Positions 8,816-36,301 of a DNA stretch of 53,396 nucleotides are shown here, in pieces. Both the position numbers and the translations under genes were made by a program. Each line of letters opens with the position of its first letter. Position 1 is the first letter of the stretch. Origin of the DNA: an uncultured Candidatus Saccharibacteria bacterium (GTDB lineage: Bacteria; Patescibacteriota; Minisyncoccia; 2-02-FULL-40-12; IGHO2-12-FULL-4); assembly GCA_964580765.1 (NCBI GenBank), contig CAZOKW010000003.1:1-53396 (forward strand), given 5' to 3'. Below the pieces are notes generated by a model. It made no database searches and was not told the origin of the DNA. It worked only from the letters and a program-made list of their open reading frames with translations.

Positions 8816-8899
8816 CCCTCCTGCGCTAAAGCTTCGGAAGGGCACTTCTTCGCTCTATGAAGAAATGCCTGCCCTGCGAAGCTCCGAAGGAGCGAAGAA
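8816..8899. repeat. family-3 (CCGAAGC) palindromic element in the rpoA-rplQ spacer
   Basis: ccctcctgcgctaaagcttcggaaggg plus the perfect 11-bp inverted repeat cttcttcgctc/gagcgaagaag. Its end gaaggagcgaagaaGTG supplies the SD for the rplQ GTG start. Confidence 0.55.
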
Positions 8900-9250
8900 G
8901 TGAAACACCATAAAAAAGGAAAAACTTTTGGAAGAGTAAGAAAACTGCGTGTGGCTTTAGTGCGGGATTTAATGCGCGCTTTGATAGAAAAAGAAAAAAT
9001 TATCACCACCGAGGCAAAAGCCAAAGCGCTGCGGCCAAAAATCGAAAAAGTTATCACCAGAGGAAAGCAAAAAAATATTTCCAATATAAGATTCCTGTCT
9101 TCGGAACTGGGCATGGGATTGGCCAAAAAAGTTTATGACACCTTATCTCCACGTTATCAAAATAGGGCGGGGGGATATACGAGAATTTTAAAAATAGCTC
9201 CCAGAAAAAGCGATAATTCCCTAATGGCTCTCATTGAATTCGTGAAATAA
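8900..9250 (+). CDS. rplQ: 50S ribosomal protein L17
   Basis: GTG start. GGYTRILKIAPR motif near the C-terminus. Confidence 0.85.
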   Translation: MKHHKKGKTFGRVRKLRVALVRDLMRALIEKEKIITTEAKAKALRPKIEKVITRGKQKNISNIRFLSSELGMGLAKKVYDTLSPRYQNRAGGYTRILKIAPRKSDNSLMALIEFVK

Positions 9251-9262
9251 TAACTAGCACTT

Positions 9263-9601
9263 ATGGAACACCAGATTGACGCCGCCAACCAAATATTCGG
9301 GCGATTAGCCAGTAAAGTGGCCGTAGTTTTGCGCGGAAAAAACAAAGCGTCATTTGATCCCGCTGTGATGCCCAAAGAAAAAGTGACCGTTTTTAATATT
9401 AACAAATTACGCTTCAGCGGAAAAAAAATGGCCCAGAAAGAATATAACCACTACTCCGGATATCCCGGAGGAATAAGAACCCGCTTTCTGGAAGAGGAAT
9501 GGGTCAAAAATCCTTCCAAAATTTTTCAGATGACCGTTTACCAAATGTTGCCTAAAAATAGATTGCGCGATAAAATTATAAAAAACTTAATTGTAAAATA
9601 G
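9263..9601 (+). CDS. rplM: 50S ribosomal protein L13
   Basis: IFGRLASKVAVVLRGKNK... typical L13 N-terminus. Confidence 0.85.
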   Translation: MEHQIDAANQIFGRLASKVAVVLRGKNKASFDPAVMPKEKVTVFNINKLRFSGKKMAQKEYNHYSGYPGGIRTRFLEEEWVKNPSKIFQMTVYQMLPKNRLRDKIIKNLIVK

Positions 9602-9607
9602 TTCAAA

Positions 9608-10123
9608 ATGGTCACAAAAGCCGCTAAAAAAAAGGTAGCAAAAAAGCTGGAGCAAAATCAGATAGCAGCCACAACCAGTCAAAGCGAGAAATACTATGAA
9701 GCGGTCGGCCGCCGCAAAAGCGCTATGGCCAGAGTCAGAATTTACACTAAAAAATCATCTGATTTGTCATTGTCGGAAAGTGAAAATGGAACAGAGAGCA
9801 AAGCCATGATTATCATTAATGATCAAGACCATGCCGATTATTTTCACCATAACGAAGAATTGCAAAACATTGCCGGAGCGCCTCTCAAGAAACTAAAATC
9901 CGTCAACCGTTTCAAGACCACTGTAAAAGTATCCGGCGGCGGAATTCACGGACAAGCCGAAGCGATTCGTCACGGTTTAGCCAGGGCCTTAATACTATTT
10001 GATCCCAATTTTGCTAAAAAACTAAAAAAGTCCGGTTATCTTACCAGGGATTCGCGAGAAAAAGAACGCCGAAAGTATGGATTAAAAAAAGCCCGCAAAG
10101 CCCCGCAGTGGGCCAAACGTTAA
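9608..10123 (+). CDS. rpsI: 30S ribosomal protein S9 with lysine-rich N-terminal extension
   Basis: YYEAVGRRKSAMARVRI, GGGIHGQAEAIRHGLARAL and the C-terminal KKARKAPQWAKR. Confidence 0.85.
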   Translation: MVTKAAKKKVAKKLEQNQIAATTSQSEKYYEAVGRRKSAMARVRIYTKKSSDLSLSESENGTESKAMIIINDQDHADYFHHNEELQNIAGAPLKKLKSVNRFKTTVKVSGGGIHGQAEAIRHGLARALILFDPNFAKKLKKSGYLTRDSREKERRKYGLKKARKAPQWAKR

Positions 10124-10148
10124 AAAAATCCCTCTAGGGATTTTTTTA
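10123..10148. terminator. bidirectional rho-independent terminator between rpsI (+) and the PEGA gene (-)
   Basis: aaaaaaatccctctagggattttttt: a perfect hairpin flanked by an A-run and a T-run. Confidence 0.7.
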
Positions 10149-10228
10149 ACGTTCACATGTCGACATATCGAAATTTAGAAACACCAGCCACTACGGCATA
10201 TCAATTAAAGCCAGGCCGCTTAAATTAC

Positions 10229-11488
10229 TCATTTTATCGTGTAGCGATTGTGAGCATCGCGAGAATCAATTTCAATAACTTCTAACCCTTTTTCTAATTC
10301 CAAAAAGGCATAGTTGCTGTTCTTGTACCAACTTAATCCGCGAATATTTTCAGATACACTGGCCACCATTTCTCTTTCTCCGGCTTTTTTCAGAGGTTGA
10401 TATTCTGTATCTTTAAGCCACTCAATCCAAAACTCATGCCTATTGCGCCAGCCCAGAATAGAATTATCCGGCGAAACAGCAAATCCTTCAGCGTTATTGG
10501 AAAGCAAAATCAGTTCTCCATTTTTTAAAGAATAAAGATGGGAACCGATAAGCGCATAATAAGACCCGTTTTTACTCTCTATTTGTTTAATAACTGGCTT
10601 TACGAAAGAGCCCAGTTCAGCTAAAATCTGTCTATTTTCTCCGTTCCAACCCATTTTTAGTAATTGGCGGGGAGGGTTGGTAACGGCATATACTTCATTT
10701 CCGACAGCCAAAAAGGAGGCCAAATTTTTAGATAGAACAATACTTTTCAAATTATCCACCGAAAAACTGATAAGCTCATTCTTGCCACCGACTGACTGTT
10801 TGGGCGATGGTTTCAAAAAGTAAATCCGGCCGTTGTTTAATGCGGCAGTTCCCAGGTGATATGGCTTGGGAGAACCGATATCGCGAAAAGTTTTTTTATT
10901 CAAATCGAAATAAACAGTTCGGGATGTGTCAAAGGCCAAGGCCTCTTTTCCATTTAAACCCCAGATAATTCCCAAAGTGGCTGGGTCAAAAAGCAAGGAC
11001 TCGCTTTTATAAATAAGCTGGTTACTGTCCATTTCATAAAAACTAAGAGCGTCCTTTCCCAAGTAAGCGGTTTTATGCAATGCCCGGTTAACAAAAAGAA
11101 TATCCGCCTGATCATTCAGAGTCCGCTCAATTTGTCCTTGGCTGAATAAAACAATCCTGGAAAAATCACTGACCAAACCCTCTGCAACTTCAATCTCTTT
11201 TTGCCAAGAGAAATAACCCTCCCTCTGCACTCTGACAGTATAGATACCCGGCAAAAGCTGTTTTTTAGAAAAAGAACCACTCAAAAAAGAAGTATGGCCC
11301 TCCAGTTTATCATTAATAAAAACCTGCGCTTCCGTATTTGATTTTATCACCAAAGAACCAGTTTTAACCAAGCGGTTATTTTGAAAATCATACCGAAAGC
11401 CAAAAGCCAGAGTTAATACTAAAACGCTTAGGCAAATAAAAACAGCCACCGCCCATATAAACAAAATGCGTCTGCTTTGTCTGGTCAT
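10229..11488 (-). CDS. membrane-anchored PEGA-domain protein, probable beta-propeller C-terminal region
   Basis: N-terminal TM helix ILFIWAVAVFICLSVLVLTLAF. PEGA-like segment LVIKSNTEAQVFINDKLEGHTS. The remainder is hydrophilic and repeat-like. Confidence 0.5.
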   Translation of the reverse strand: MTRQSRRILFIWAVAVFICLSVLVLTLAFGFRYDFQNNRLVKTGSLVIKSNTEAQVFINDKLEGHTSFLSGSFSKKQLLPGIYTVRVQREGYFSWQKEIEVAEGLVSDFSRIVLFSQGQIERTLNDQADILFVNRALHKTAYLGKDALSFYEMDSNQLIYKSESLLFDPATLGIIWGLNGKEALAFDTSRTVYFDLNKKTFRDIGSPKPYHLGTAALNNGRIYFLKPSPKQSVGGKNELISFSVDNLKSIVLSKNLASFLAVGNEVYAVTNPPRQLLKMGWNGENRQILAELGSFVKPVIKQIESKNGSYYALIGSHLYSLKNGELILLSNNAEGFAVSPDNSILGWRNRHEFWIEWLKDTEYQPLKKAGEREMVASVSENIRGLSWYKNSNYAFLELEKGLEVIEIDSRDAHNRYTIK

Positions 11489-11490
11489 CT

Positions 11491-11656
11491 TATAGAGGTC
11501 ATCTCAAACCCTCTTTCATTACGAAATTTTAAAAACTTTAAGCGAAAATAATGAAGATTGAGGAAGGATACTAATAGTATTTTGACGAAATCTGAATTAT
11601 TTGTAGCTAAAGTTTTTAAATTGCAGTAGAATATGGGGTTTGAGATGACCTCTACA
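11491..11656. mobile_element. MITE-like element with 21-bp terminal inverted repeats (20/21 match)
   Basis: Left arm tatagaggtcatctcaaaccc at 11491-11511; right arm gggtttgagatgacctctaca at 11636-11656. The left arm starts 3 nt from the start codon of the minus-strand PEGA gene. The right arm is an inverted copy of that gene's 5' end. Confidence 0.45.
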
Positions 11657-11738
11657 CTATTATGCATAAAGTAGAAGTGATTGTAAATCTTGCTTAAACA
11701 CCTGATGGATTATAAACTAGGGACGATAACATCTTATT

Positions 11739-12746
11739 ATGTTTGTAAAAAAGATTGGAATAGATCTGGGCACTACTAATACTTTGGTGTTTGTGCCGAA
11801 AAAAGGAATCGTTATTAACGAACCGTCGGTGGTTTCGATTTCAATTTTAGACAACAAAATAATCGCCGTAGGGAATGAGGCCAAAGAAATGATCGGCCGG
11901 GCGCCGGATAGCATCATTGTTTCCCGTCCGCTTAAAGACGGAGCGATTGCCGACTATCGCGTAACCGAAGCCATGCTCCGGTATTTTATCAGAAAGGCGG
12001 TCGGCAAAATCGGCCTGGTCAAACCGGAAGTGCTTATCTCTGTACCGGCTGGAATTAACTCCACCGAAAGAAGAGCGGTCATTGAAGCCACCATGAACGC
12101 CGGGGCCAAGGCTGCTTATCTGGTCAAGGAACCTGTTTTGGCGGCCATCGGAGCCAAGATAGCCATCAACAGCGCTTCCGGCAACATGATCTTAAATATC
12201 GGCGGGGGAACCGTGGAAGTGGCCATCATCAGCTTGGGAGGGATAGTCAACGCTTCTTCAGCCCGGGTGGGCGGAAACAAAATAGATGAGGCCATCGTTG
12301 ATTACATTAAAAAAAAACACGGCTTGGCCATCGGGAACCGCACCGCCGAATTGATCAAGATCGCCATTGGCAGCGCTATTAAACAAAGTAATGAAGAAAA
12401 AATTAATGTGCGAGGAAGAGATCTGACTACCGGTTACCCCAAAACAGTGGAGATTGGTTCCAATGAAATCACCGAGGCCATGCAAGACCAACTGCGGGAA
12501 ATTATTCAGACCACCAAAAATGTTTTGCAAGATACGCCGCCGGAACTTTGTTCCGATATCATCGATAAAGGCATCGTCATTTCCGGCGGGGGAGCGCTGC
12601 TAAAAAATATCGACACCCTAGTAACTAAAATCACGGGGGTGCCATGCCGAATCGCCGACGACCCCCTTCTCTGTGTGGCCAAAGGCACCGGCGTAGTTTT
12701 AGAAAACTTGGAAGTCTACAAAAGAAATATAATGACGAAAAGATAG
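11739..12746 (+). CDS. mreB: rod-shape determining actin homologue MreB
   Basis: IGIDLGTTNTLVFV..., actin-fold phosphate motifs, ILNIGGGT. Confidence 0.85.
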   Translation: MFVKKIGIDLGTTNTLVFVPKKGIVINEPSVVSISILDNKIIAVGNEAKEMIGRAPDSIIVSRPLKDGAIADYRVTEAMLRYFIRKAVGKIGLVKPEVLISVPAGINSTERRAVIEATMNAGAKAAYLVKEPVLAAIGAKIAINSASGNMILNIGGGTVEVAIISLGGIVNASSARVGGNKIDEAIVDYIKKKHGLAIGNRTAELIKIAIGSAIKQSNEEKINVRGRDLTTGYPKTVEIGSNEITEAMQDQLREIIQTTKNVLQDTPPELCSDIIDKGIVISGGGALLKNIDTLVTKITGVPCRIADDPLLCVAKGTGVVLENLEVYKRNIMTKR

Positions 12747-12750
12747 AGTG

Positions 12751-12972
12751 GTCATAATGCCAAGTACTGCTTTTTCCGGACGCTCACTTTTTTCCGGCGA
12801 AAAAGCTCGCTCATTGTAAGCAGTGGATTCGGAAAGAATTAAAAGATTAATTATATTCTTTCCGTCCAGCTCGCTACTTTTTCCGCATAATTCTGCTGAA
12901 TAGATTGCAAAAGTAGCTCGCGAGCAATCCACCGCTTACAGAGCCTTCAAAAGCAATACTTGGCATTATGAC
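12751..12972. mobile_element. MITE-like element with 24-bp terminal inverted repeats and nested internal palindromes
   Basis: gtcataatgccaagtactgctttt at 12751 and aaaagcaatacttggcattatgac at 12949 (23/24 match). Internal partner pairs ctcattgtaagcagtggattc / gaatccaccgcttacagag. Confidence 0.5.
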
Positions 12973-12982
12973 TTTGATATTG

Positions 12983-13012
12983 CAAACAAAAAAGCGCGGG
13001 GAATCCCCACGC
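12983..13012 (-). terminator. rho-independent terminator after the small minus-strand ORF
   Basis: Minus strand reads gcgtggggattccccgcgc followed by tttttt. Confidence 0.5.
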
Positions 13013-13019
13013 CGCAGTA

Positions 13020-13139
13020 CTACTCTTCATCATCATTCGCCATTTTTTCGAGACTTTCATGGATCTTGGATAGTTTCCAACTGATCATGACAAGCATGTA
13101 AGCAATAAACACCACCAACCCAAAAAATACTGACTCCAT
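13020..13139 (-). CDS. small hydrophobic protein (39 aa)
   Basis: Hand translation MESVFFGLVVFIAYMLVMISWKLSKIHESLEKMANDDEE. Strong SD GGAGGTG 5 nt before the ATG. Terminator immediately downstream. Confidence 0.35.
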   Translation of the reverse strand: MESVFFGLVVFIAYMLVMISWKLSKIHESLEKMANDDEE

Positions 13140-13191
13140 AGGACACCTCCTTCTTTACTTTTAATCATAAACATACAGTTTAGTACTTAAA

Positions 13192-14445
13192 ATGTCAAGT
13201 AATCCCCTGAAAAAAATCGCCTTAGTTCATGACTGGCTTTTGGGATTGGGGGGGGCGGAGAGGACACTGAAGGTTCTGCATGAGATGTTTCCCCAAGCGC
13301 CAATTTATACTTTTTTTTACAACAAAAAATTTACCGATAAATTTTTACCGAACGCTCAAATTAGACCCTCCTTCATCCAGAAAATTTGTAAACTAAAAAC
13401 TATAAACTATAAACTATTCTTGCCCCTTCTGCCCATTGCCGCCGAGTCATTTGATTTAAGCCATTTTAATCTGGTCATCTCATCTTCCATCGCCTTTTCC
13501 AAGGGACTGATTTTGAAACCGAAAACAAAACATATCTGCTATTGCTACAGTCCCACTCGATTTTTGTGGGATTGGCACCAGGAATATTTACTTGGAAACG
13601 GGGTTTCCAAGTTAAATAAAGGATGGGGAGTTAAAATACTTCAACATTTTTTAAGAATCTGGGACCGGCAGTCCGCCAATCGGGTGGACCAGTTTGTGGC
13701 TATTTCCAAAACTGTTCAGCAACGCATTAAAAAATATTACGGACGAGATTCGATTGTAATTTATCCGCCAGTTACCAGAATTGAAAGCAGTGTACTCCCT
13801 CGGGACATTGATTTTCCCAGCGAGAAAATCAATTCACTGTCGGCTATGGATTTTGTCCGAAGTGAGGAAATTATACTTCGTCCAAACCATGCAATCCACA
13901 GCCGACAGTGCCCTCTGGAGTACACTGCTTCCAAATCTGATCTCATACCAAATTATTACTTAATCGTTTCCCGTTTATTCCCACACAAAAACATTGATAT
14001 CGCTATCAGGGCCTTTAACAAATTGGAACTGCCTCTGATAATTATCGGCGCTGGGCCGGAATATGGAAAATTAAAAAAAATAATTGAGAACAAGAATATG
14101 ATAAAATTACTGGGAGAGGTGCCGGATACAGAATTAGGAAACTATTACGCCGATACTAAGGCCTTTATCATGCCACAGGAAGAGGACTTTGGCATGACTC
14201 CATTGGAAGCCATGGCCTTTGGCAAACCGGTTCTGGCCTTGCGAAAAGGAGGGGCGCTGGAGTATGTTTTAGAAGGAATCAATGGAGAATTTTTTGACGA
14301 CCCTCATCCCGCCATTTTAGCCGACGGGGTCCGCCGTTTAAACGAAAATTATAAAAATTACAGCCCTTTAGTCATAAAAAAAACTGCGGAAAGATTTTCA
14401 CGCAGTCGGTTTGAAGAGGAGATAAAAAACATTATTTCAAAATGA
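13192..14445 (+). CDS. GT4-family glycosyltransferase with an in-frame palindromic-element insertion
   Basis: N-terminal ALVHDWLLGLGGAERT glycosyltransferase motif. The 141-bp family-4 element at 13788-13928 is a multiple of 3 and keeps the frame. Confidence 0.7.
   Translation: MSSNPLKKIALVHDWLLGLGGAERTLKVLHEMFPQAPIYTFFYNKKFTDKFLPNAQIRPSFIQKICKLKTINYKLFLPLLPIAAESFDLSHFNLVISSSIAFSKGLILKPKTKHICYCYSPTRFLWDWHQEYLLGNGVSKLNKGWGVKILQHFLRIWDRQSANRVDQFVAISKTVQQRIKKYYGRDSIVIYPPVTRIESSVLPRDIDFPSEKINSLSAMDFVRSEEIILRPNHAIHSRQCPLEYTASKSDLIPNYYLIVSRLFPHKNIDIAIRAFNKLELPLIIIGAGPEYGKLKKIIENKNMIKLLGEVPDTELGNYYADTKAFIMPQEEDFGMTPLEAMAFGKPVLALRKGGALEYVLEGINGEFFDDPHPAILADGVRRLNENYKNYSPLVIKKTAERFSRSRFEEEIKNIISK
13788..13928. 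mobile_element. family-4 palindromic element (TIR gcagNNtact...ccctc) inside the GT4 gene
   Basis: Outer inverted repeat gcagtgtactcc / ggagtacactgc. Inner pair cactgtcggctatggat / atccacagccgacagtg. Core ggattttgtccgaagtga...ttcgtccaaaccatgcaatcc is shared with the copy at 50689-50839. Confidence 0.6.
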
Positions 14446-14537
14446 CATCATTACTTTATTCTGAAACCTCTTTCCAGTACCACCTCAATACCAGTCACGC
14501 AAACAACAATCAAACAAAACCATAAAAAAGTTTCCAT

Positions 14538-15512
14538 ATGTCACCTCGTGTTTTTATAATCATTCTCCAGTACAACCATTCCCAAGACACTATTAAGTGC
14601 CTTGATTCGGTTGGGAAATTGACCTACCCCAACTTTCAAACAGTTGTCGTGGACAATGCTTCTCAAAGTTCTGAAAAAGATAATATCAAGAACTACATAA
14701 AAAGTCAAGGCAACATTGTTTTGCTCGAAAATGAAAAAAATTTGGGATACGCCGGAGGAAATAATACCGGAATAAAATACGCTTTAGCCCATGGCGCGGA
14801 TTATGTTTTCATTTTAAATAACGACACGACTGTTCCGCCGGACTTACTTGAGAAATTGGTAAACGAAGGGGAAAGTGACTCTAAAATTGGAATAGTGGGA
14901 CCGGCCATCAAAGAAGGGGATGGGCGAATCGCTTACTACGGAAAAATCTCCTGGCTCAAAGCAGAACTGAAACATGTCTATGGAAAATCAGCCATACACC
15001 TACTCGAAAATTCCCGAGCGACAAGTCGAGGGTCGAGAGTGGGTGGTATGGCTGATTTTCCCGATCGAGTACGAGTATTAGGGCCGAAAGAATATGTCAT
15101 CGGGGCGGGAATGCTTATCAAAAAAGAGGTACTGGAAAAGATAGATGGTTTTGATGAGGTTTACTTTCTATATTTTGAAGATGCCGACCTCTGTCTGCGC
15201 GCCCAATTAGCCGGTTATAAGCTCAAAATTGCCCCAGAAACAATGATTTATCACCAAGGAGCCGCCAGCACCTCTACTCTTGGCAAACCGCTACTTTTAC
15301 GGTACCATATGAGGAACGCTCTGATTTTTAACTCGCTCAACGCGCCTTGGCCAGTTAAGTTTAGTTTAATCTTCTGGTCCAGCTACATTTTACTGAAAAA
15401 CTTTTTGAAAGTTTTTCTTTTGCCATCCAAAGTAACGGCCGGAGAAGCCATCATTGACGGCGTGCTGGATTTTTATAAAAACAACTACGGAAAAATAAAT
15501 ACTCCCAATTAA
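14538..15512 (+). CDS. GT2-family glycosyltransferase with an in-frame family-2 element insertion
   Basis: VVDNASQ, GYAGGNNTG and EDADLCLRAQLAGYKL motifs. The frame is maintained across the 14985-15058 insert, which encodes KSAIHLLENSRATSRGSRVGGMADF. Confidence 0.75.
   Translation: MSPRVFIIILQYNHSQDTIKCLDSVGKLTYPNFQTVVVDNASQSSEKDNIKNYIKSQGNIVLLENEKNLGYAGGNNTGIKYALAHGADYVFILNNDTTVPPDLLEKLVNEGESDSKIGIVGPAIKEGDGRIAYYGKISWLKAELKHVYGKSAIHLLENSRATSRGSRVGGMADFPDRVRVLGPKEYVIGAGMLIKKEVLEKIDGFDEVYFLYFEDADLCLRAQLAGYKLKIAPETMIYHQGAASTSTLGKPLLLRYHMRNALIFNSLNAPWPVKFSLIFWSSYILLKNFLKVFLLPSKVTAGEAIIDGVLDFYKNNYGKINTPN
14985..15058. mobile_element. family-2 RPE-like palindromic element, copy 1, in-frame in the GT2 gene
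   Basis: aaatcagccatacacc...ctcgaaaattcccgagcgacaagtcgagggtcgagagtgggtgg...tatggctgattt with a terminal 16-bp imperfect inverted repeat. Confidence 0.7.
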
Positions 15513-15520
15513 TTAAATTG

Positions 15521-15691
15521 CTAGCTTTCGTTCAAATATGACCGATTGGCTGCAAATTACCGAAGCGGAGTGAAAATTTGGCCGGTAGATTAAAATTCGG
15601 TCCGACTCTTGGAGGGGTACTGAATTTTAGTCGGCAAATTGAGCAAAGCGAGGATAATTTGTCCAAGAGGACATCTTGAAAAGAGAGCTGG
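15521..15691 (+). ncRNA. candidate structured element SE, copy 1, upstream of the GT4 gene
   Basis: Near-identical to 34399-34589 over about 160 nt (ttcaaatatgNNcgattgg...ggaggggtactgaattttagtcggcaaattga...gcgaggataatttgtccaagagg.catcttgaaaagaga). It ends 17 nt before the ATG at 15709. Confidence 0.4.
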
Positions 15692-15708
15692 CAATTTAAT
15701 TAAAAAAT

Positions 15709-21138: not shown

Positions 21139-21143
21139 CTATC

Positions 21144-21213
21144 AAGAGGCGGAGGGGAACACTTTTTTTGAGCGCCGTCGAATAAAAAAGTATGTTCACC
21201 AGAGCCTCTGGCG
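21144..21213. repeat. family-1 hairpin element
   Basis: aagaggcggaggggaacactttttttgagcgccgtcgaataaaaaagtatgttcaccagagcctctgg. It is the reverse complement of the copy at 36301-36380. Confidence 0.65.
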
Positions 21214-25546: not shown

Positions 25547-26344
25547 TTATCTTATCCGGCTCAACCAGAATTGGTTTTCCCACTCCCAAAGAGTTTTGCA
25601 AGCCAAAAAAGCGGAAAAATCATGATTCTGACCGGGCAATTCTTTCAGCTCCGCTTCTCCGACCATTTCACTCCATTGGTGTTGGCAATTTTTTCCTTTG
25701 CCCTCCGAAGCTTTACTGTGTCCGTCCGAAGCGCTTCGCGAAGGAGGAGCGTAGGAGGGGACTCTTATCTTAGGTGTACCGCCCTTCAAACGCAAAGTAG
25801 CCGGACAATTTAAGCATTTATGGTGCTGGTCCAAACGCAATATCCAGCGGGTCATAGAAGAGGGAAGGCCATTTTCTATCAAGGCCTCCACATAAGCAGC
25901 GGTCTGGATGCCATAATCCCTATAAATGGAATAGGAAGTTTTAATATCTAAAACTCCAAGTTGGCCGTTCACTTCCGCCAAGACATCCAAAGTGCCGGAG
26001 TAGCGGTGCTTTTTACTGACTAATCTTTCCTCGATCTGTTTGGCCGAGACCTGGTTGTGATTTAGAAAATTCATAAAAGCGTCAATAACCGGGCGGATGT
26101 TTTCCGGAATGACCGGCTGCCGGCCGCTTAAAATCGCCTCAACCGTTTCGTGAATTAAAGTTCCTTCTTCCGCCGATTTAGCCTTCATCGCTTCCCCGGC
26201 TTCAAAACTTTCCTGCTCCGCATAAAATTTATAAAGCCCCGGCTTAGCTTTCATGGAAACAATTTGAGTAACCCGCGGATACCAAAAACCATCAATGGTA
26301 TAACCGGAAGCCATCTTAAAATCTTCTAGAGTCCGATAAAACAT
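25547..26344 (-). CDS. PD-(D/E)XK nuclease, Cas4/RecB-exonuclease-like, with an embedded family-3 element
   Basis: GTLDVL...LGVLDIKTS...YGIQTAAY (D, EXK and QxxxY motifs). C-terminal Cys cluster HHKCLNCP...C, interrupted by the element at 25700-25760 that encodes APPSRSASDGHSKASEG. Confidence 0.55.
   Translation of the reverse strand: MFYRTLEDFKMASGYTIDGFWYPRVTQIVSMKAKPGLYKFYAEQESFEAGEAMKAKSAEEGTLIHETVEAILSGRQPVIPENIRPVIDAFMNFLNHNQVSAKQIEERLVSKKHRYSGTLDVLAEVNGQLGVLDIKTSYSIYRDYGIQTAAYVEALIENGLPSSMTRWILRLDQHHKCLNCPATLRLKGGTPKIRVPSYAPPSRSASDGHSKASEGKGKNCQHQWSEMVGEAELKELPGQNHDFSAFLACKTLWEWENQFWLSRIR
25700..25760. mobile_element. family-3 (CCGAAGC) palindromic element inside the Cas4-like gene
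   Basis: gccctccgaagctttactgtgtccgtccgaagcgcttcgcgaaggaggagcgtaggagggg. The central cgaagcgcttcg is a perfect palindrome. It matches 32380-32439. Confidence 0.65.
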
Positions 26345-28091: not shown

Positions 28092-28112
28092 AAGCCGAAA
28101 TTCGGCTTTTTT
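28092..28112 (+). terminator. rho-independent terminator
   Basis: aagccgaaattcggctttttt. Confidence 0.65.
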
Positions 28113-28187
28113 AGTTATAGGGGATAAAGGAGTTTAAAATATGGACTAGGACGCACAATATACATTTTACGACCTACTATCCTTTTA

Positions 28188-28577: not shown

Positions 28578-28635
28578 CCCTGTCTTAACTTGACAACATT
28601 AATAAACTTATGTCAAGTGAGTTATCCACAACTGG

Positions 28636-28697
28636 GAAGCCCCAACGGGGCGAAATTAAAAGGTGAGATGCCGACGAGTCTTACGAGCCGGCGCCGC
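28636..28697 (-). terminator. two-hairpin terminator module after ndh, the same family as 24136-24197
   Basis: Minus strand reads gccggctcgtaagactcgtcggc, atctcacctttt, aatttc, gccccgttggggc. Confidence 0.45.
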
Positions 28698-28736
28698 AGG
28701 CCAATTCATGAGACCTTTCTCCCCCGTTCCATGCCT

Positions 28737-29975: not shown

Positions 29976-30065
29976 AATATTTATTTTTATTCCCCTCCCC
30001 CGCCGATAATTAAAATTTGTTTCACAAATTTAGTTCATCAAGAACATTATAACCTTATAACTCTT

Positions 30066-31397
30066 TTATAGGTAATCTAATGGATTTATTGAACCTTCAA
30101 AATAGTTAAAATATAACTGGCCGTTTTTTTCGTTGATATAAGTAAAGAAATCTTTATAAACACTTAGATGTAAATGGGAGCCGGTGGAATTTCCGGTAGA
30201 CCCCTCATAACCGATAACATCACTGGCCGTAACCGCCAAACCATTAACCAAACCGGAAGGAGCGCGCAGATGAGCGTAAACACTGACCAATCCGCCATTG
30301 TGCCGCACAGCCACCCAATGGCCGAAACCATCGTTAAACCCGCTGGCCAAAATATTTCCGGCGGCCATCGGATGAATGGCCGTACCATAACCGCCCGCCA
30401 AATCAATCCCGTTATGAGGAGCGCCACCATAAGGTTTTCGTCTGGAACGGGCATAAGCGGTATATCCGTAACCTTGGGTAATGTGATATTCATCTTCCGG
30501 CCATTGAAAAATTTTAGTTCCCCGCGGAGGAACCGCATCAGCCGTCACATGTACGATAAAAGCCCCAGACTGCAAGGCCTGATCTTCCAAATTCTTTAAT
30601 TCCGCGAAAAACTCCGCTTCTTTCTTCTCCGTTTCCGCCAGTAATTTTTGATACTCCGCCTCCTGCCCCTTGGTCCTGACCAAAAGATTGTTCTTGTTCG
30701 ATTTGGTGCCGCTTAAAGCCACCTGCTGATTCTTCTGTGAATTATTCAACTTTTCCAAATCCTGTTTTTTTATTTCCAGTTCGGTCTTATTTTCTTCCAG
30801 TTCTTGGCGTTCGTTTTTTAAAACAGTAATGGCGGCCAACAAACTCTTGTTTAAATTATCGGCCTGCTTGGCTTGATCCAAAAAATCGGAAAGGTGGTTA
30901 TTTTTCAACAAAATAGCCAGCCAGTTTTCCCGGTCGTTTTGATACATCATTTTCAGTAAACTGCCCACCGTATCTTGACGATTTTTGATCTTTTCGTGCC
31001 GGTCAAAAATTTTATCGCGCAAATCCCCGATTACCAACTGTGTAGAGGAAATCTTATTTCCGGTTATTCTGACTTCCGTTTCCAACCGGCTGATCTGATT
31101 GGTCAAAACGCTTATTTCTTTTTGTAAACTAGTCGCCTCCTTTTGCTTGCCGGAAACAACTTTTTTATATTCATCTGATTTCTTTTGCAGTTCTTCCAAC
31201 TGTTTTCTCAAGTCCAATATTTTCTGATTGACATCTTCCGCCGCCAATCCAGATCCGGAATAAAAAAAGAAAGAGAAGAAAACGACCAGGCAAATCAGCC
31301 ATACACCTACCTGAAAACTCCCGAGCGACAAGTCGAGGGTCGAAGGTAGGTTGTATTGCTGATTTGCTAAAAATTTACTTTTGAATTGCTTTTTCAA
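30066..31397 (-). CDS. M23 family metallopeptidase with coiled-coil region (EnvC-like)
   Basis: Long coiled-coil. C-terminal HNGIDLA...GSTGNSTGSHLHLSV M23 motifs. The N-terminal 35 codons are encoded by the family-2 element copy at 31292-31365. Confidence 0.7.
   Translation of the reverse strand: MKKQFKSKFLANQQYNLPSTLDLSLGSFQVGVWLICLVVFFSFFFYSGSGLAAEDVNQKILDLRKQLEELQKKSDEYKKVVSGKQKEATSLQKEISVLTNQISRLETEVRITGNKISSTQLVIGDLRDKIFDRHEKIKNRQDTVGSLLKMMYQNDRENWLAILLKNNHLSDFLDQAKQADNLNKSLLAAITVLKNERQELEENKTELEIKKQDLEKLNNSQKNQQVALSGTKSNKNNLLVRTKGQEAEYQKLLAETEKKEAEFFAELKNLEDQALQSGAFIVHVTADAVPPRGTKIFQWPEDEYHITQGYGYTAYARSRRKPYGGAPHNGIDLAGGYGTAIHPMAAGNILASGFNDGFGHWVAVRHNGGLVSVYAHLRAPSGLVNGLAVTASDVIGYEGSTGNSTGSHLHLSVYKDFFTYINEKNGQLYFNYFEGSINPLDYL
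31292..31365. mobile_element. family-2 RPE-like element, copy 4, antisense within the 5' end of the M23 peptidase gene
   Basis: aaatcagccatacacctacc...cccgagcgacaagtcgagggtcgaaggtaggttgtattgctgattt. Confidence 0.6.
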
Positions 31398-32835
31398 TTC
31401 TAGTAAGTGTTTTATCTCGTCCTAATATACCCATAATCTGCACCGGATCGGGAGAAAACTTCTCTCCGCTTAAAGCCACCCGCAAAGGCCAATAAACCGC
31501 CCCTCTGTCTCCGCCGAATTCTTTTTCGGCCAATTGATCCAACTCGGAACGAATATATTTCTCATCAAAAATCTCCCACTCAGTTTTGCTTTCCAAAATT
31601 TCTTTAGCTAATTCTAGGGCCTTTTTTGCCCCCTCCTTATCCGATTTTTTCCAGACCAGTAAATCAGATTCGTACTCCGGCTCGACAAAGAAAAACTTAA
31701 ATTCTTTAACCTGCTCAAAATGTTCTAATCGCTCCCGCAACATCGGCGCTATTTTGATAATTTTTTCATTGGCCTGCTCTCCAAAATATTTTTCCACAAA
31801 GTGTTTGGCTGCTTCGGCCAGTCCCTCGTCGTTGAACATTTTAATATACTGCGAGTTAACCCAGTTTAATTTTTTGATATCAAAAATCGCTCCGCTTTGA
31901 TGAACTTTTTCTAAACTAAACTGCTCAATAATTTCATTCTTGGTTAGTATCTCTCTGTCTCCCTCCGAACTCCACCCCAACGCCGCCAAAAAATTCACCA
32001 TGGCCTCCGGCAGATAACCAGACTCTTTGTAAAAAGAAAAATCAGTTGATCCGTGTCGTTTGGAAAGCTTGGAACGGTCCGCCCCCAAAAGCAAAGGCAA
32101 ATGGGCAAATTGTGGGACCGGCGCTCCCAACGCTTCGAAAATTAGAATTTGTTTGGGAGTGTTGGAAATGTGGTCTTCGCCACGAATGACATGACTTATT
32201 TGCATTTCATAGTCGTCCACCGCCACGGCAAAATTGTAGAGCGGAGTTTGCAGGTTTTTCGCCAAACTCAAATCCCCCACCACTTTCTGCTCAAACTCAA
32301 TATGACCCCGAACCGCGTCTTCAAAATGAATAATTCTGGTCGAATTTTCATCTACCGCCAATCTAATGATCCCTGGCTTGCCCTCCGAAGCTTTACTGTG
32401 TCCGTCCGAAGCGCTTCGCGAAGGAGGAGCGAAGGAGGGATATTTATGTTCGCAAATATGGCGTGGCGCTTCTTTTTTGGTCATCTGCTCCTCTTTTTCT
32501 TTATTTAGTTCCTCAATGGAGTGATAGCACCAAAAGGCCTTTTTCTCTTCCAAAAGTTTTTGTAAATATTTTTCATAGAGGGCCGACCGTTCACTGGAAC
32601 GATAAAACTCATCCCATTTTAAACCCAGCCACTCCAAACCGGACATGATGCTTTTCTCAAATTCGGATCTTGATCTTTCCTTGTCGGTATCCTCAATTCG
32701 TAAAATAAATTCACCGCCATGGTGGCGGGCAAAAAGCCAATTATACAAAGCCGATTGAGCTGTGCCCACATGTAAATTCCCCGTCGGCGAAGGCGCCACC
32801 CTAGTCCGAATTTTTAGCTTTTGAACTTTAGTCAT
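31375..32835 (-). CDS. gltX: glutamyl-tRNA synthetase with an in-frame family-3 element insertion
   Basis: RVAPSPTGNLHVGTAQSALYNWLFARHHGG and KLSKRHG class-I motifs. The insert EHKYPSFAPPSRSASDGHSKASEGK precedes the conserved PGIIRLAV. Confidence 0.85.
   Translation of the reverse strand: MTKVQKLKIRTRVAPSPTGNLHVGTAQSALYNWLFARHHGGEFILRIEDTDKERSRSEFEKSIMSGLEWLGLKWDEFYRSSERSALYEKYLQKLLEEKKAFWCYHSIEELNKEKEEQMTKKEAPRHICEHKYPSFAPPSRSASDGHSKASEGKPGIIRLAVDENSTRIIHFEDAVRGHIEFEQKVVGDLSLAKNLQTPLYNFAVAVDDYEMQISHVIRGEDHISNTPKQILIFEALGAPVPQFAHLPLLLGADRSKLSKRHGSTDFSFYKESGYLPEAMVNFLAALGWSSEGDREILTKNEIIEQFSLEKVHQSGAIFDIKKLNWVNSQYIKMFNDEGLAEAAKHFVEKYFGEQANEKIIKIAPMLRERLEHFEQVKEFKFFFVEPEYESDLLVWKKSDKEGAKKALELAKEILESKTEWEIFDEKYIRSELDQLAEKEFGGDRGAVYWPLRVALSGEKFSPDPVQIMGILGRDKTLTRIEKAIQK
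32380..32439. mobile_element. family-3 (CCGAAGC) element inside gltX
   Basis: gccctccgaagctttactgtgtccgtccgaagcgcttcgcgaaggaggagcgaaggaggg, differing at 1 of 60 positions from 25700-25759. Confidence 0.7.
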
Positions 32836-32903
32836 ATTAAAATATTAACATATTTTTATGACTATCCTCAATACTTAATATTTGTGATAATTTAAAGGTA
32901 TAG

Positions 32904-33536
32904 ATGTATGTAATTGAGGTCATCCCCCTTGTCGCTATTCAGCGCAATCAAAAACGGATTTATAGCTTTTTCCATGCCGAAAACCTTCCGGCCGGAAGTT
33001 TGGTGGAGGTGCTTGTTAGTGGTAAAAAAACAAAAGCCGTTGCTATAAATTCCCAAAGTATAAAATACCTTAAAATCCGGCTCAAAAAAGAGGCCGATTT
33101 TGAATTAAAGCCGATTATTAAAGTTCTAAACAAAAACCCTGCTCCGAATTTTGACATCGCTCTTTGGTTTCCGGCCCCAAAAATTAAAGAGAAAAAAACA
33201 AAAGAACGACCGAGCGAAGAGCGAGGAAGTGGTGAGCCCAGCAGGGCGAATCCAGAGAAAGTTGAAAACTTGTTAAACGGTTACTTAGAAAAACTGGCCG
33301 AAAGAAAAGTGGCCAGCAAAGCTAAAAACTACATGCAGGAAACGGCCGAGGAATATCTTAAATATATTGATTGGGAGAATGATTCGTTTGAGGAAGACAT
33401 GCGCCTCTTCTGGATATCGGCCTCAAATTACTATAAAAGGCATACACATCACGATTTTGTAAAAATTTTGGAATGGGTAAAGAAAAAGGACTCCTTAAGC
33501 CCGAAACAAGTGGCTAAACTGTTCAACAAAGAATAA
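32904..33536 (+). CDS. hypothetical protein with a PriA N-terminal (3' DNA-binding)-like domain, no helicase domains
   Basis: VIEVIPLVAIQRNQKRIYSFFHAENLPAGSLVEVLVSGKKTKAVAI resembles the PriA N-terminus. It occupies the priA position upstream of def-fmt. Confidence 0.4.
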   Translation: MYVIEVIPLVAIQRNQKRIYSFFHAENLPAGSLVEVLVSGKKTKAVAINSQSIKYLKIRLKKEADFELKPIIKVLNKNPAPNFDIALWFPAPKIKEKKTKERPSEERGSGEPSRANPEKVENLLNGYLEKLAERKVASKAKNYMQETAEEYLKYIDWENDSFEEDMRLFWISASNYYKRHTHHDFVKILEWVKKKDSLSPKQVAKLFNKE

Positions 33537-33555
33537 AAAAGGTATATTAAGCGCG

Positions 33556-34002
33556 ATGGACATCATTAAAGAACCGAATCAAATACTGCATCAAAAACTG
33601 GCGGAAGTGCCGGAGATTTCGGCTGGAATAAAAGAACTTATTGCAGAAATGAGAATAAAAATGGTGGAAGCACAAGGAGTAGGACTGGCCGCTAATCAGG
33701 TTGGAGAAAATTTGCAGATTTTTGTGATTGATAAAAAACTAGCTGAAGAAAACAAAGTTCCCGATACCTTCATCAATCCGGAAGTCAGCGAATATTCCCG
33801 TGAACAAGAGGAAATGGAAGAAGGGTGTTTGTCGCTTCCCGAATATTTTATCTCCATATCTCGTTCTAAAAAGATAAAAATAAAAGCCATGGATGAGAAC
33901 GGTAAAAAGATCCGTTTTAAGGCCAAAGGATTTTTGGCCAGAGTTTTACAGCACGAAACCGATCATCTAAATGGTCTATTAATTAAAGATAGGGTGAGCT
34001 AG
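33556..34002 (+). CDS. def: peptide deformylase
   Basis: GVGLAANQVG, EGCLSLPE and QHETDHLNG motifs. Confidence 0.85.
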   Translation: MDIIKEPNQILHQKLAEVPEISAGIKELIAEMRIKMVEAQGVGLAANQVGENLQIFVIDKKLAEENKVPDTFINPEVSEYSREQEEMEEGCLSLPEYFISISRSKKIKIKAMDENGKKIRFKAKGFLARVLQHETDHLNGLLIKDRVS

Positions 34003-34014
34003 TGCCAACAAAAT

Positions 34015-34338
34015 ATGATTACTTATGAAGACTTCAAAAAATTAGAATTGCGTGTGGCCAAAATAATAGAAGCGGAAAGAGTAGAAGGATCGGAGAAACT
34101 TTTGAAATTAAAACTGGATTTAGGCGAGCCGGAACCCAGGCAAGTCATCGCCGGCATCGGCAAAAATTATGAGCCCGAAAAACTAATTGGCCAAGAAATT
34201 ATTATTGTGGCCAATTTGGAACCAAAACAATTAATAGGACTGGAAAGCAACGGCATGCTTTTGGCCGCCGACAGCATCAACGGCCCGGTAATTTTAATAC
34301 CGGAAAAAGAAGTCGAACCGGGCGCAATTATAAAGTAG
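34015..34338 (+). CDS. tRNA-binding (CsaA/EMAP/MetRS-C-like) domain protein
   Basis: LELRVAKIIEAERVEGSEKLLKLKLDLGE...RQVIAGIG is a typical OB-fold tRNA-binding domain. Confidence 0.7.
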   Translation: MITYEDFKKLELRVAKIIEAERVEGSEKLLKLKLDLGEPEPRQVIAGIGKNYEPEKLIGQEIIIVANLEPKQLIGLESNGMLLAADSINGPVILIPEKEVEPGAIIK

Positions 34339-34398
34339 AGGGGAAGAAATTGGCTGGCATTGCTTTTGAAAGTGCTGCGCTTTAATTATTTTAAGCAA

Positions 34399-34589
34399 AG
34401 TACCCACCCATCTTTTTTCAAATATGGTCGATTGGTTGCAAATTACCGAAGCGGAGTGAAAATTTGGCCGGTAGATTAAAATTCGGTCCGACTCTTGGAG
34501 GGGTACTGAATTTTAGTCGGCAAATTGAACGGAGCGAGGATAATTTGTCCAAGAGGGCATCTTGAAAAGAGAGGGGTGGGGACGGAGCT
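34399..34589 (+). ncRNA. candidate structured element SE, copy 2, upstream of fmt
   Basis: About 95% identical to copy 1. The 5' end gtacccacccatcttttttcaa is complementary to the 3' end cttgaaaagagaggggtggggac. It ends 9 nt before the fmt ATG. Confidence 0.4.
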
Positions 34590-34597
34590 GAAAACAA

Positions 34598-35488
34598 ATG
34601 AAAATTATTTTCTTTGGAACTTTTCAGTACGCCGTTCCGGCTTTGGAACGGTTAATTAAGGCCGGCTATGAGATTGTGGCCGTTGTCACTAACCCCGATT
34701 CTTTTCAGGGAAGAAAGAAAGAATTGGTGGCCAGTCCCGTCAAACTCGCCGCCCAGCAATACGGCTTAACTGTTTTTCAGCCTCCCAGTTTGAAAATTGG
34801 AAAATTAGAAAATTATTTGGAAATTGAAAATTTTAAATTGAAAATTAAATCCGCCGATCTGGGCATCGTCGTAGCCTACAGCAAAATAATCCCAAAAGAA
34901 ATTTTGGGATTATTTCCTAAAGGTGTTTTGAACATTCACCCCTCTCTCCTGCCCCTTTACCGGGGTCCCTCCCCTATTCAGTCGGCTATTTTAAACGGAG
35001 AAAAAGAAACGGGAGTAACCATTATGCAAATTGACGAAGAAGTGGATCACGGGGCCATTTTATCTCAAGCCAAATATGTAATTCCTCCCGAAGCGCTCCA
35101 CCCCCAAATTGCCATGGAAATTTTCCAGTTAGGAGCAGAACTTTTAATTAAAACTATCCCCGATTGGCTGGCTGGAAAAATCATCCCCCAGCCCCAAGAA
35201 CACACTTGTGCCACTTTTACTAAAAAATTCTCCTGGGAAAACGGGCGAATTGATTGGAATCAGCCGGCGGAAAAAATATATAACCAAATCCGCGCCCTCA
35301 ATCCTGAACCCGGCACCTGGACCACTTGGAAACGGGGTTTCCAAGTGAAAATCTTGAAAATATTAAAAGCCGAAATCGGAGAGGATGGAAAAGTACTTCC
35401 TCAAGAAGTCCAACCGGAAGGCAAAAAAGCCATGCCTTTCCAAGATTTCCTCCGTGGAGTTGGCCAAAAAGAACTGGATTTTAAATAG
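34598..35488 (+). CDS. fmt: methionyl-tRNA formyltransferase
   Basis: IIFFGT and HPSLLPLYRGPSPIQ SLLP-type motifs. There is a low-complexity AT-rich insertion LKIGKLENYLEIENFKLKIKS at 34795-34860. Confidence 0.85.
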   Translation: MKIIFFGTFQYAVPALERLIKAGYEIVAVVTNPDSFQGRKKELVASPVKLAAQQYGLTVFQPPSLKIGKLENYLEIENFKLKIKSADLGIVVAYSKIIPKEILGLFPKGVLNIHPSLLPLYRGPSPIQSAILNGEKETGVTIMQIDEEVDHGAILSQAKYVIPPEALHPQIAMEIFQLGAELLIKTIPDWLAGKIIPQPQEHTCATFTKKFSWENGRIDWNQPAEKIYNQIRALNPEPGTWTTWKRGFQVKILKILKAEIGEDGKVLPQEVQPEGKKAMPFQDFLRGVGQKELDFK

Positions 35489-35512
35489 AAAACTTGCTAT
35501 TGTAAAAATCTA

Positions 35513-36301
35513 ATGACTGAAAAATCACCGGACCTGCCCTTCCGAAGCTCCGATTTATCCTTCGAAACTTTAGTGAAGGAGGAAGGAGCGAAGGAGGGAA
35601 AAATATTGGAAGTTAAGGACTTGGCTGTCTCTTTTGACAGTTTTAATGTTTTTCATGACATCTCTTTTGAACTGGCCCGCGGAGAAGTGATGGCGGTAGT
35701 CGGACCGAACGGCTCCGGAAAGACGGTTTTATTCCGGGCGCTTTTGAAATTAATTCGTTATCAAGGCGCGGTAATCTGGAACAAGGACATCAAGATTGGC
35801 TATGTGCCCCAAAAACTTTTTGTGGATAGCCAATTCCCCGTCAGCGTCGGTGACTTTTTTAAATTCAAAACTAAATCCAAGGAAGCCATGACAGAGGCCC
35901 TAAATTCCGTTGGTTTCAGCGAAGATTTTGAACATCTCAAACATCATGTCTTAAACAAAAAGTTAGGAGCGCTTTCTGGAGGACAACTCCAAAGAGTCCT
36001 GATTGCCTGGAGCATCATCAACAAGCCGGACATCCTTCTTTTTGACGAACCGACTTCCGGTATCGATATCGGCGGAGAAGAAACTATTTACAACCTCCTG
36101 CACAAACTCCAAGCCAGTTCCCACTTAGCGCTCATTTTAATTTCGCACGACCTGAATATTGTTTACAAATATGCCGATAAGGTTTTATGCCTTAACAAAG
36201 AAGCAATTTGCTACGGCCCCCCGCATGAAGTATTAAATACTGCCAATTTAAGCCAGCTCTACGGAGGAGAAACAAAATTTTACGAACACAAACATGAGTA
36301 G
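35513..36301 (+). CDS. ABC transporter ATP-binding protein (ZnuC/MntB-like)
   Basis: Walker A GPNGSGKT, signature LSGGQLQRV, Walker B LLFDEPTSGID. The first 30 codons are a family-3 element. An alternative TTG start at 35606 has AGGAGG 8 nt upstream, supplied by the element. Confidence 0.75.
   Translation: MTEKSPDLPFRSSDLSFETLVKEEGAKEGKILEVKDLAVSFDSFNVFHDISFELARGEVMAVVGPNGSGKTVLFRALLKLIRYQGAVIWNKDIKIGYVPQKLFVDSQFPVSVGDFFKFKTKSKEAMTEALNSVGFSEDFEHLKHHVLNKKLGALSGGQLQRVLIAWSIINKPDILLFDEPTSGIDIGGEETIYNLLHKLQASSHLALILISHDLNIVYKYADKVLCLNKEAICYGPPHEVLNTANLSQLYGGETKFYEHKHE
35535..35598. mobile_element. family-3 (CCGAAGC) element at the 5' end of the ABC ATPase gene
   Basis: gcccttccgaagctccgatttatccttcgaaactttagtgaaggaggaaggagcgaaggaggg. 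Confidence 0.55.

Follow-up and report, generated by a model that had tools for sequence, protein, structure and literature searches.

How does a palindromic sequence of some 60 nt come to lie, nearly letter for letter, in frame within both gltX and a nuclease gene of a single bacterial genome? The question is raised by the 53,396-nt stretch of contig CAZOKW010000003.1 analysed here (the window), in which a sequence-only reading had described a palindromic, selfish-looking repeat family at four sites: inside gltX, inside a PD-(D/E)XK-like nuclease gene, at the beginning of an ABC transporter ATPase gene and in the rpoA-rplQ spacer. We found the family at all four sites, and its in-frame repetition within gltX and the nuclease gene is confirmed by the identity of the two copies (61 of 62 positions between 25698-25759 and 32378-32439, from a repeat finder) and by their common reading frame. 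The host is an ultra-small groundwater bacterium of the Candidate Phyla Radiation (CPR), Yanofskybacteria-like: its ribosomal protein L17 is 100 % identical to that of 'Parcubacteria group bacterium Gr01-1014_44' (GCA_007376105.1), and relatives of its glutamyl-tRNA synthetase (GluRS) carry the name Candidatus Yanofskybacteria. Its genome has 42 % GC, and the element is very GC-rich. The family is most probably a non-autonomous selfish palindromic DNA, of the type of the REP (repetitive extragenic palindromic) sequences and the Rickettsia palindromic elements (RPEs), which selection has filtered to tolerable protein loops.

Copies of the element in the window

A covariance model made from 11 family members, of which the window supplied two and other genomes nine, on a hand-set 16-bp structure, and run with its filters off, matched the window five times (Table 1), with no further match at E < 0.1. 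The copies in gltX and in the nuclease gene measure 63 nt with their conserved YTTR prefix and include the perfect palindrome CGAAGCGCTTCG; both give the peptide PS[FY]APPSRSASDGHSKASEGK, which reads YPSFAPPSRSASDGHSKASEGKP in GluRS and VPSYAPPSRSASDGHSKASEGKG in the nuclease. The element encodes residues 133–153 of GluRS (PSFAPPSRSASDGHSKASEGK), that is, 21 codons and not the 25 residues first proposed. The third full-length copy, more diverged, is indeed situated inside the opening 30 codons of the ABC ATPase's long open reading frame (ORF), where it encodes LPFRSSDLSFETLVKEEGAKE; the gene 5′ of this ORF is fmt, and not a gene of the znuA type as had been suggested. Likewise, the rpoA-rplQ spacer, initially taken for one long copy, contains instead two short single-hairpin units of about 30 nt in opposite orientations. 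The heptamer CCGAAGC by itself is only about 2-fold enriched in the window (18 occurrences versus 8 expected), and about one third of these occurrences fall within copies of the family.

Table 1. Copies of the element, their host genes and associated features (positions are those of the window; L numbers designate fetched loci from other genomes)
Feature	Position or locus	Strand	Orientation to gene	Basis and remarks
Full-length 63-nt element (YTTR tag and nested double hairpin) in gltX	32377..32439	+	antisense	model match 32377-32441, 90.9 bits
Full-length 63-nt element in PD-(D/E)XK-like nuclease gene	25697..25759	+	antisense	model match 25697-25761, 87.6 bits
Diverged full-length copy in ZnuC-like ABC ATPase ORF, codons 8-29	35534..35598	+	sense, in frame	model match 35534-35600, 45.1 bits
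Short single-hairpin unit, rpoA-rplQ spacer: GCCCTTCC GAA GC TTTA GC GCA GGAGGGC	8814..8845	-		27.2 bits, E = 3e-5
Short, partly decayed unit, rpoA-rplQ spacer: CCTGCCCTGC GAA GCTCC GAA GGAGC GAA GAAGTG	8868..8902	+		model match 8868-8904, 16.8 bits, E = 0.02
Perfect 13-bp stem, 8843-8855 CACTTCTTCGCTC with 8890-8902 GAGCGAAGAAGTG	8843..8902	+		z = -2.7 as RNA, -3.2 as DNA
gltX (glutamyl-tRNA synthetase), host gene	31375..32835	-		Pfam PF00749 (3e-100), PF19269; homologues
PD-(D/E)XK-like nuclease, host gene	25547..26344	-		weak Pfam PF12705, 20.5 bits, below cut-off
ZnuC-like ABC transporter ATPase, host gene	35513..36301	+		ZnuC model 172 bits, match from residue 31
rpoA, gene upstream of spacer	7908..8804	+		Pfam, comparison with relatives
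rplQ (ribosomal protein L17)	8900..9250	+		GTG start at 8900; Pfam, relatives
Copy in AspRS, inside OB fold	L061		antisense	
Copy in CysRS	L004		sense	
Copy in MnmA	L009		sense	
Copy in TatD	L058		antisense	
Copy in small-domain (MTS) methyltransferase	L059 / L051		antisense	
Copy in GT1 glycosyltransferase	L060		antisense	
Copy in GalT-like protein	L045		antisense	
Copies (probably two) in trigger factor	L014		antisense	
Copy in Hsp20	L019		antisense	
Copy in 460-aa protein, no assigned function	L008		antisense	one mismatch, peptide identical to the window's, another genome assembled from a metagenome
Copy in Saprospiraceae membrane protein	L046		sense	host from ORF only

Structure of the element

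The basic unit, of about 30 nt, consists of a 4-nt 5′ tag (CTTG, TTTG or TTTA), a stem CCCKCC/GGAGGG and an unpaired 3×3 internal loop, GAA×GAA, beyond which there is a short stem, GC/GC, with a small loop. The long form reads, on the plus strand of the window, YTTR, CCCTCC GAA GC, TTTA CTGTG TCCGTCC GAA GC GCTTC GC GAA GGAGGA, GC GAA GGAGGG. Its outer part comprises the stem CCCTCC/GGAGGG, the 3×3 loop GAA×GAA and a 2-bp GC/GC stem, followed by 7-9 unpaired nt on the 5′ side; its inner part repeats the arrangement, with the stem TCC(G)TCC/GGAGGA, a second loop G[AU]A×GAA, a second GC/GC stem and a loop of 4-5 nt. The same CTTG/TTTA tag is found ahead of the outer unit and at the beginning of the unpaired stretch before the inner hairpin, and the form of 60-66 nt would be a unit that is nested, with its own tag, in the loop of another unit.

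We examined base pairing in 47 model matches, from the window and from 41 fetched loci of other genomes. Standard pairs occupied 95.7 % of the cells and 8 of the 16 pairs showed changes on both sides; none of 500 shuffles reached the observed values and all the slid controls were far lower. The alignment was fitted to the model and its outer arms were fixed by the search patterns, with most of the covariation located in the inner stem and the inner loops, which the patterns left free.

The inserts compared with orthologous proteins

An alignment of GluRS orthologues had been proposed as the check on a lineage-specific insert, and the segment is indeed absent from 36 aligned orthologues as well as from the best-matching solved GluRS, indicating that these 21 codons are unique to the lineage of the window. 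They are situated in a loop just past the zinc-motif region (HICEHKY, insert, PGIIRLAV), which varies in length and sequence in all 36 orthologues and has about 12 residues fewer in the nearest solved structure. In an AlphaFold2 model of the protein (mean pLDDT, the predicted per-residue confidence, of 89), the insert is a coil with pLDDT < 50 at residues 139–150, in a predicted surface loop that is compatible with the fold.

Two nuclease orthologues found by synteny (L065 and L066, 74-75 % identity) are 20 residues shorter exactly at the insert site, which lies between the CxxC and CxH motifs; this is a net difference, because the window gene has about 22 extra codons and lacks two orthologue codons just after the site. 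ABC ATPase orthologues begin MSEDK-KILEVKDL or MAEKHTE-KILEVKDL, with only 5-8 residues before KILEVKDL, as compared to MTEKS-[24 residues]-KILEVKDL in the window. Furthermore, a model scan of about 100 kb of orthologous loci from relatives found no copy of the family except for one short unit in L066. The peptide coded by the element would be present in these proteins, translated as an additional loop.

Copies in other genes and use of reading frames

Pattern scans of genome and metagenome collections, with the host genes read off the covering ORFs and confirmed by Pfam for all but one (L046), located copies of the family in no fewer than 10 unrelated genes in other genomes (Table 1). The insertion in an aminoacyl-tRNA synthetase, held to be unusual in the sequence-only reading, is therefore not exceptional, since the same element occurs in AspRS and CysRS of other CPR bacteria and the phenomenon has long been known from Rickettsia (PMC3733652).

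Including the three genes from the window, 10 intragenic copies are antisense (PSFAP..KASEGK) and four are sense (LP[SA]EA..GAKEG), so that all 14 use two of the five open frames (P ≤ 3e-5 under equal frame use). The two frames in use produce small, polar peptides with net charges of +1 and −2, and the unused open frames are arginine-rich, with charges of +3 to +6. The length of the intragenic copies, tag included, is either 60 or 63 nt, with the exception of the ABC copy, which is diverged and has ends that cannot be placed. Outside any long ORF, three copies measure 61 and 69 nt. We infer that selection causes this bias in frame use.

Initiation signals of rplQ and of the ABC ATPase gene

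One alternative is that the element is kept because it supplies translation initiation signals (GGAGG, and GTG in the case of rplQ) to downstream genes, in line with the earlier proposal that it donates a ribosome binding site. A GGAG is indeed found 7 nt 5′ of the rplQ GTG, and a GGAGG 8 nt 5′ of an in-frame TTG of the ABC gene (35606). Additionally, the rpoA-rplQ spacer of relatives spans only 17-18 nt and is followed by an ATG start, whereas in the window it spans 95 nt, all of it element sequence, and is followed by a GTG start that coincides with the last three bases of the second unit. From this comparison, the rplQ initiation region is entirely derived from the element, which in a trivial sense supplies whatever signals are used. 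Nevertheless, among 50 window genes scanned for GGAG or GAGG at positions −18 to −4, a Shine-Dalgarno (SD)-like motif preceded only six, compared to a background of 7 % in random 15-mers, and the other ribosomal-protein genes nearby lack such motifs, their leaders being AT-rich. Moreover, the GGAG and the GTG of rplQ are both enclosed in the perfect 13-bp stem. In the ABC gene, the ATG at 35513 (MTEKS...) aligns with the start of the orthologues (MAEKHTEK / MSEDKK, then KILEVKDL), no stop codon interrupts the frame within the element, this frame is the one used by the other intragenic sense copies, and the invariant K-I of the ATPase lies upstream of the proposed TTG; for these reasons the ancestral ATG is probably the start, and not the TTG that had been put forward. 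Finally, 10 of the 14 intragenic copies are antisense and therefore their mRNA carries CCUCC, not GGAGG. Donation of a ribosome binding site is thus weakly supported: it is possible for rplQ, but unlikely as the reason for the existence of the family, and we consider it improbable that the element is maintained for the signals it brings.

One public gene set calls L17 as a protein of 99 residues (P0132), 17 short, likely because the element hairpin hides its true start, the GTG; relatives share the N-terminus MKHHKKGKTFG. The genome looks SD-poor, and many starts have TATAAACT-like motifs 10-25 nt upstream; there are also arrays of TATAAAGTT/ATAAACT with a 9-nt period, located upstream of rpoA and in the clpB-hrcA interval (examples of these features lie at 4214-4248, 7135-7169, 7818-7904 and 42636-42751). 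These features suggest transcripts with short leaders or leaderless. RpoA did not show a match to the alpha-CTD, and its C-terminal tail is about 30 residues longer than that of its relatives (8577-8725); the extra tail derives from a 21-nt tandem repeat (8577-8660) and a stretch with 82 % GC (8676-8725), with a weak model match, that may be a decayed element.

Occurrence in other phyla and in viral contigs

Matches from the genome scan are not confined to CPR bacteria, and include Saprospiraceae, Flavobacteriia, Verrucomicrobiota, Deltaproteobacteria, Planctomycetota and others. A complementary prefix ccc[t/g], which was not forced by the pattern, was present in about 38 of the 57 matches. 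No match to the long pattern was found in viral contigs; only the short-unit pattern, CCCTCCGAAGC-N4-34-GCGAAGGAGGG, found copies there, in 25 stretches, often with several units per contig and arranged head to head. Fully complementary control patterns produced only 0 and 4 matches in these contigs, which argues that the unpaired GAA×GAA loop is a specific, conserved feature. Frame use is uninformative in high-GC viral contigs, whose composition by itself leaves several frames open.

The wide conservation of both arms and of the unpaired loop could also be expected from a functional RNA or DNA structure, serving a conserved host factor in mRNA stability, processing or termination, with the insertions in genes as mere by-products. 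Consistent with this possibility, copies in other phyla are often directly downstream of tRNA or tmRNA genes, and folding favours the plus strand over the minus strand (−24.6 versus −19.1 kcal/mol). However, none of the five window copies is followed by a T-run characteristic of intrinsic terminators, as some copies in other phyla are (for example, L052), positions differ between close relatives, and copies occur in both orientations relative to transcription. Besides, the 53-kb window contains no tRNA gene or other Rfam family at gathering score, the sole match being a weak one to dinG RNA, at chance level (12 bits, E = 6). We hence judge a conserved host function of the hairpin to be quite unlikely.

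Tentatively, and short of an even chance, the window element could represent the CPR branch of a pan-bacterial superfamily of hairpin repeats, characterized by a YTG-type 5′ tag, a strictly conserved unpaired GAA×GAA loop, recognition by one conserved enzyme and nesting into its own loops, that may extend over CPR bacteria, Bacteroidota, Verrucomicrobiota, Deltaproteobacteria, Planctomycetota and (pro)phage contigs. If this were true, the superfamily would have colonised core translation genes of CPR bacteria (GluRS, AspRS, CysRS, MnmA, trigger factor and the initiation region of L17), and would keep supplying the smallest bacterial genomes with new protein loops.

Peptide, transcript and assembly

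The family could alternatively be a module at the level of the protein (a linker or interaction peptide under selection) that recombination has spread, because 10 proteins share one frame and the motifs at the ends of the peptide, PSFAP and ASEGK, are conserved. Nevertheless, these ends are the plain translation of conserved stems, and the middle of the peptide varies (RSAS, RKAT, PKAT, PEAT, HKAT) exactly where the hairpin loop varies, which indicates that the conserved object is the nucleic-acid hairpin and that the peptide is merely tolerated. The covariation of the base pairs, the copies in the other orientation and in non-coding DNA, and the predicted disorder of the segment also make a selected peptide very improbable.

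It would be even more surprising if the element never reached the protein, either because it is removed from the transcript in an intron-like manner or because it is bypassed by the ribosome. Hairpin inserts that are bypassed by ribosomes are known from yeast mitochondria. In a Liptonbacteria genome assembled from a metagenome, a 60-nt copy splits a tRNA-like sequence in its D-arm (L011, 6822-6927; GCCCCGTTAGCTCAGTTGGTAGA, element, GCAGGTCCCTCTAGCAA), and its removal would be needed if that gene is functional. However, ARAGORN finds no tRNA at this site, where the fetched stretch ends before the gene does. Moreover, the intragenic copies have lengths of 60 or 63 nt, the ABC copy apart, and occupy only two stop-free frames, a constraint that neither removal nor bypassing would impose.

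An assembly or binning artefact of collapsed or chimeric repeats, the concern raised with the first description and for which we found no supporting point, is practically out of the question, because the 486-aa GluRS and the 265-aa nuclease each recur exactly, with their inserts, on three contigs of different assemblies (among them GCA_007376105.1, VMFO01000002.1), two further assemblies are 99.99 % identical to window positions 1-13899 and 1-10563 with an identical spacer, the inserts do not break the reading frame, and numerous independent metagenome-assembled genomes and metagenomes contain related copies.

Nature of the element and its possible spread

The selfish palindromic DNA that we favour would spread with its copies landing in genes and spacers alike. 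Purifying selection would then leave only those gene insertions with a length multiple of 3 (60 or 63 nt) that fall in tolerant surface loops or termini and that are read in one of the two frames giving a small, polar and nearly uncharged peptide, the survivors presumably being translated as a floppy loop. The preponderance of antisense copies may have two further causes: the SD-like GGAGG would be kept out of the mRNA, and the hairpin in the mRNA would be weaker, because G·U pairs work on one strand only.

As to how the element moves, it is possible, if rather doubtful, that it does so as a single-stranded DNA hairpin, by the action in trans of an HUH/Y1 transposase, similar to the REP-associated tyrosine transposases (RAYTs), encoded elsewhere in the genome. 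In favour of this we count that the hairpin ends with a short tag, that there is no target-site duplication, that units nest in loops, and that a RAYT-like gene exists in L065, from a Yanofskybacteria relative. This Y1 transposase gene (L065 13096-13907; NF047646, 28 bits, below cut-off) is located between genes for an M23 peptidase and an oxidoreductase; it is flanked by REP-like hairpins, ACTGAGAAGTTSAACTTMTCAGT, and contains two more in frame (LRSSTSKL, LRSSTYQ).

Several observations weigh against the interpretation of the family as selfish DNA, or against this manner of spreading. The RAYT-like gene from L065 is linked to a hairpin family different from that of the window, and the GTAG and CGTC tags of the known REP superfamilies are absent from the ends of the element. 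No transposase of any kind appeared in a Pfam search of 38 ORFs from the 53-kb window, and tblastn with the Y1 protein of the relative did not detect a Y1 gene in the window or in the loci that carry the element. The 13 intragenic copies that were inspected lack a target-site duplication or flanking direct repeat, as well as a clear target motif. In gltX a clean empty allele is lacking, since the hypervariable loop differs in every relative, and translation of the inserts is deduced from sequence. A search with the concatenated five open-frame peptides against 5.8 billion proteins returned 47 candidates, none with E ≤ 10, and phmmer with a 31-aa segment of the nuclease against 1.84 billion representatives gave no match at E ≤ 0.001; such a census at the protein level is uninformative, because a low-complexity peptide of 20 residues carries too little information. 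Lastly, the folding energy of the element is unexceptional compared to shuffles of matched composition (z = −1.5 as RNA, −0.6 as DNA), and the structural support rests therefore on covariation, in the alignment that was fitted to the model and partly constrained by the search patterns.

Other repeats and neighbouring features

The window contains additional families of dispersed repeats. A second, unrelated palindromic family, AATCAGCCATACACC...GGTATGGCTGATT, of 77-140 nt, is found at 14975-15062, 17325-17455, 18495-18582 and 31282-31368, in frame within genes for a GT2 glycosyltransferase, an O-antigen-ligase-like protein (twice) and an M23 peptidase (antisense); three of its copies read GKSAIHLLENSR...SRGSRVGGMAD. 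The perfect palindrome ACTTGGAAACGGGGTTTCCAAGT occurs three times (13590-13616, 17937-17963 and 35324-35350), within the GT1, O-antigen-ligase-like and fmt genes. Terminal inverted repeats (CCCACCCATCTTTTTTCAAATATG ... CATCTTGAAAAGAGAGGGGTGGGG) bound an intergenic repeat of about 160-190 nt that is present at 15509-15703, 34379-34589, 49012-49294 and 51466-51506, upstream of a GT1 gene, fmt and dnaB. It has no relation to the element in spite of a CCGAAGC within it, and two of its copies are 96 % identical. A 157-nt repeat (15531-15687 / 34417-34573) that contains CCGAAGC was considered as a member of the family under study and ruled out: it belongs to a different family, of the type with terminal inverted repeats, and its heptamer is therefore incidental. 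Another dispersed inverted-repeat family is situated at 21146-21207 and 36312-36374, and also at 4110-4133, 16877-16903 and 16980-17003; the GT2 gene downstream has its ATG (21192) within the copy at 21163-21207.

Two mobile genes from the orthologous neighbourhoods of relatives have no counterpart in the window: a reverse transcriptase (RVT_1) directly upstream of gltX (L062, 9105-9995) and a LAGLIDADG endonuclease (L065, 16442-16987).

Implications

The genomes of CPR bacteria are among the smallest and most streamlined known, and the 53-kb window contains, nonetheless, several selfish hairpin families in essential genes, which conflicts with simple ideas of genome streamlining. In-frame palindromic repeats, once termed unique to Rickettsia, are now extended to a huge uncultivated radiation. 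In practical terms, metagenome-assembled genomes suffer from the inserts, which inflate and distort their protein alignments, gene calls and predicted start sites, as illustrated by L17. The enzyme behind RPE- and REP-like elements without a linked transposase has been in question since 2000; the signature of the element (tag, GAA×GAA loop and nesting) is sharp and widespread and is therefore a good handle for the phylogenetic profiling of the mobilising enzyme, offering a route to an answer.

Comparison with known repeat systems

Our literature search found no paper containing the sequence strings of the element and none linking Rickettsia palindromic elements with CPR bacteria or Patescibacteria. 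Known families of small repeats resemble the element to different extents. Mycobacterial interspersed repetitive units (MIRUs) and Neisseria Correia elements are intercistronic and overlap start or stop codons, or bring promoters, sequences resembling ribosome binding sites or processing sites. They constitute an analogue of the situation at rplQ, with the difference that the window genome is SD-poor and that the SD-like motif of rplQ is sequestered in a stem.

[quoted passage not shown] However, MITEs have terminal inverted repeats and target-site duplications and usually exceed 100 bp, whereas the sole 'terminal repeat' of the window element is the 6-bp outer stem; we discarded a classical MITE, derived from a DDE transposon, because no target-site duplication was seen.

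More similar are the REP, BIME and REPIN elements with their RAYT transposases, which form superfamilies tagged by GTAG and CGTC (PMC3733652). Like the window element, REPs are imperfect hairpins of 20-40 nt with a short unpaired tag at one end, and occur as singles, inverted dimers and clusters, often downstream of genes. The rpoA-rplQ spacer contains such an inverted dimer, comparable to a REPIN or a BIME, formed by its minus-strand and plus-strand units, and the viral contigs contain head-to-head pairs. However, the 5′ flank of the element is CTTG, TTTG, TTTA or CCTG, the 3′ flank is not conserved, and GTAG appears only inside the inner stem of some copies; the tag is then YTTR (CTTG, TTTA, CCTG) and not GTAG or CGTC, and membership in these superfamilies was discarded on this basis. 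The family also differs from REPs in having no RAYT linked to it in the 53 kb of this genome or in the loci that carry the element, in the nesting of units in each other's loops, and in that three of the five window copies and most of the CPR copies found are intragenic and not extragenic.

The closest parallel in behaviour is with the Rickettsia palindromic elements RPE-1 to RPE-8 (Ogata et al., 2000, 2002; Claverie and Ogata, 2003; via PMC3733652), and intragenic REPs that encode 20-30 residues are reported from Opitutus terrae and Rickettsia conorii (PMC3733652). Both RPEs and the window element are dispersed palindromic repeats inserted in frame in many unrelated genes, including essential ones, usually in one shared frame, that add extra residues (about 20-50 for RPEs) in tolerated loops; both appear also in RNA genes and spacers, show no linked transposase and inhabit a reduced genome. 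The likeness is one of behaviour. The host belongs to the CPR (Patescibacteria) and not to the Alphaproteobacteria. RPE-1 has a length of roughly 100-150 bp. The window element is shorter, with a 30-nt unit and a 63-nt nested form, and differs further in being very GC-rich within a genome of much lower GC content, in its GAA×GAA loops, and in having related units in many phyla and in viral contigs.

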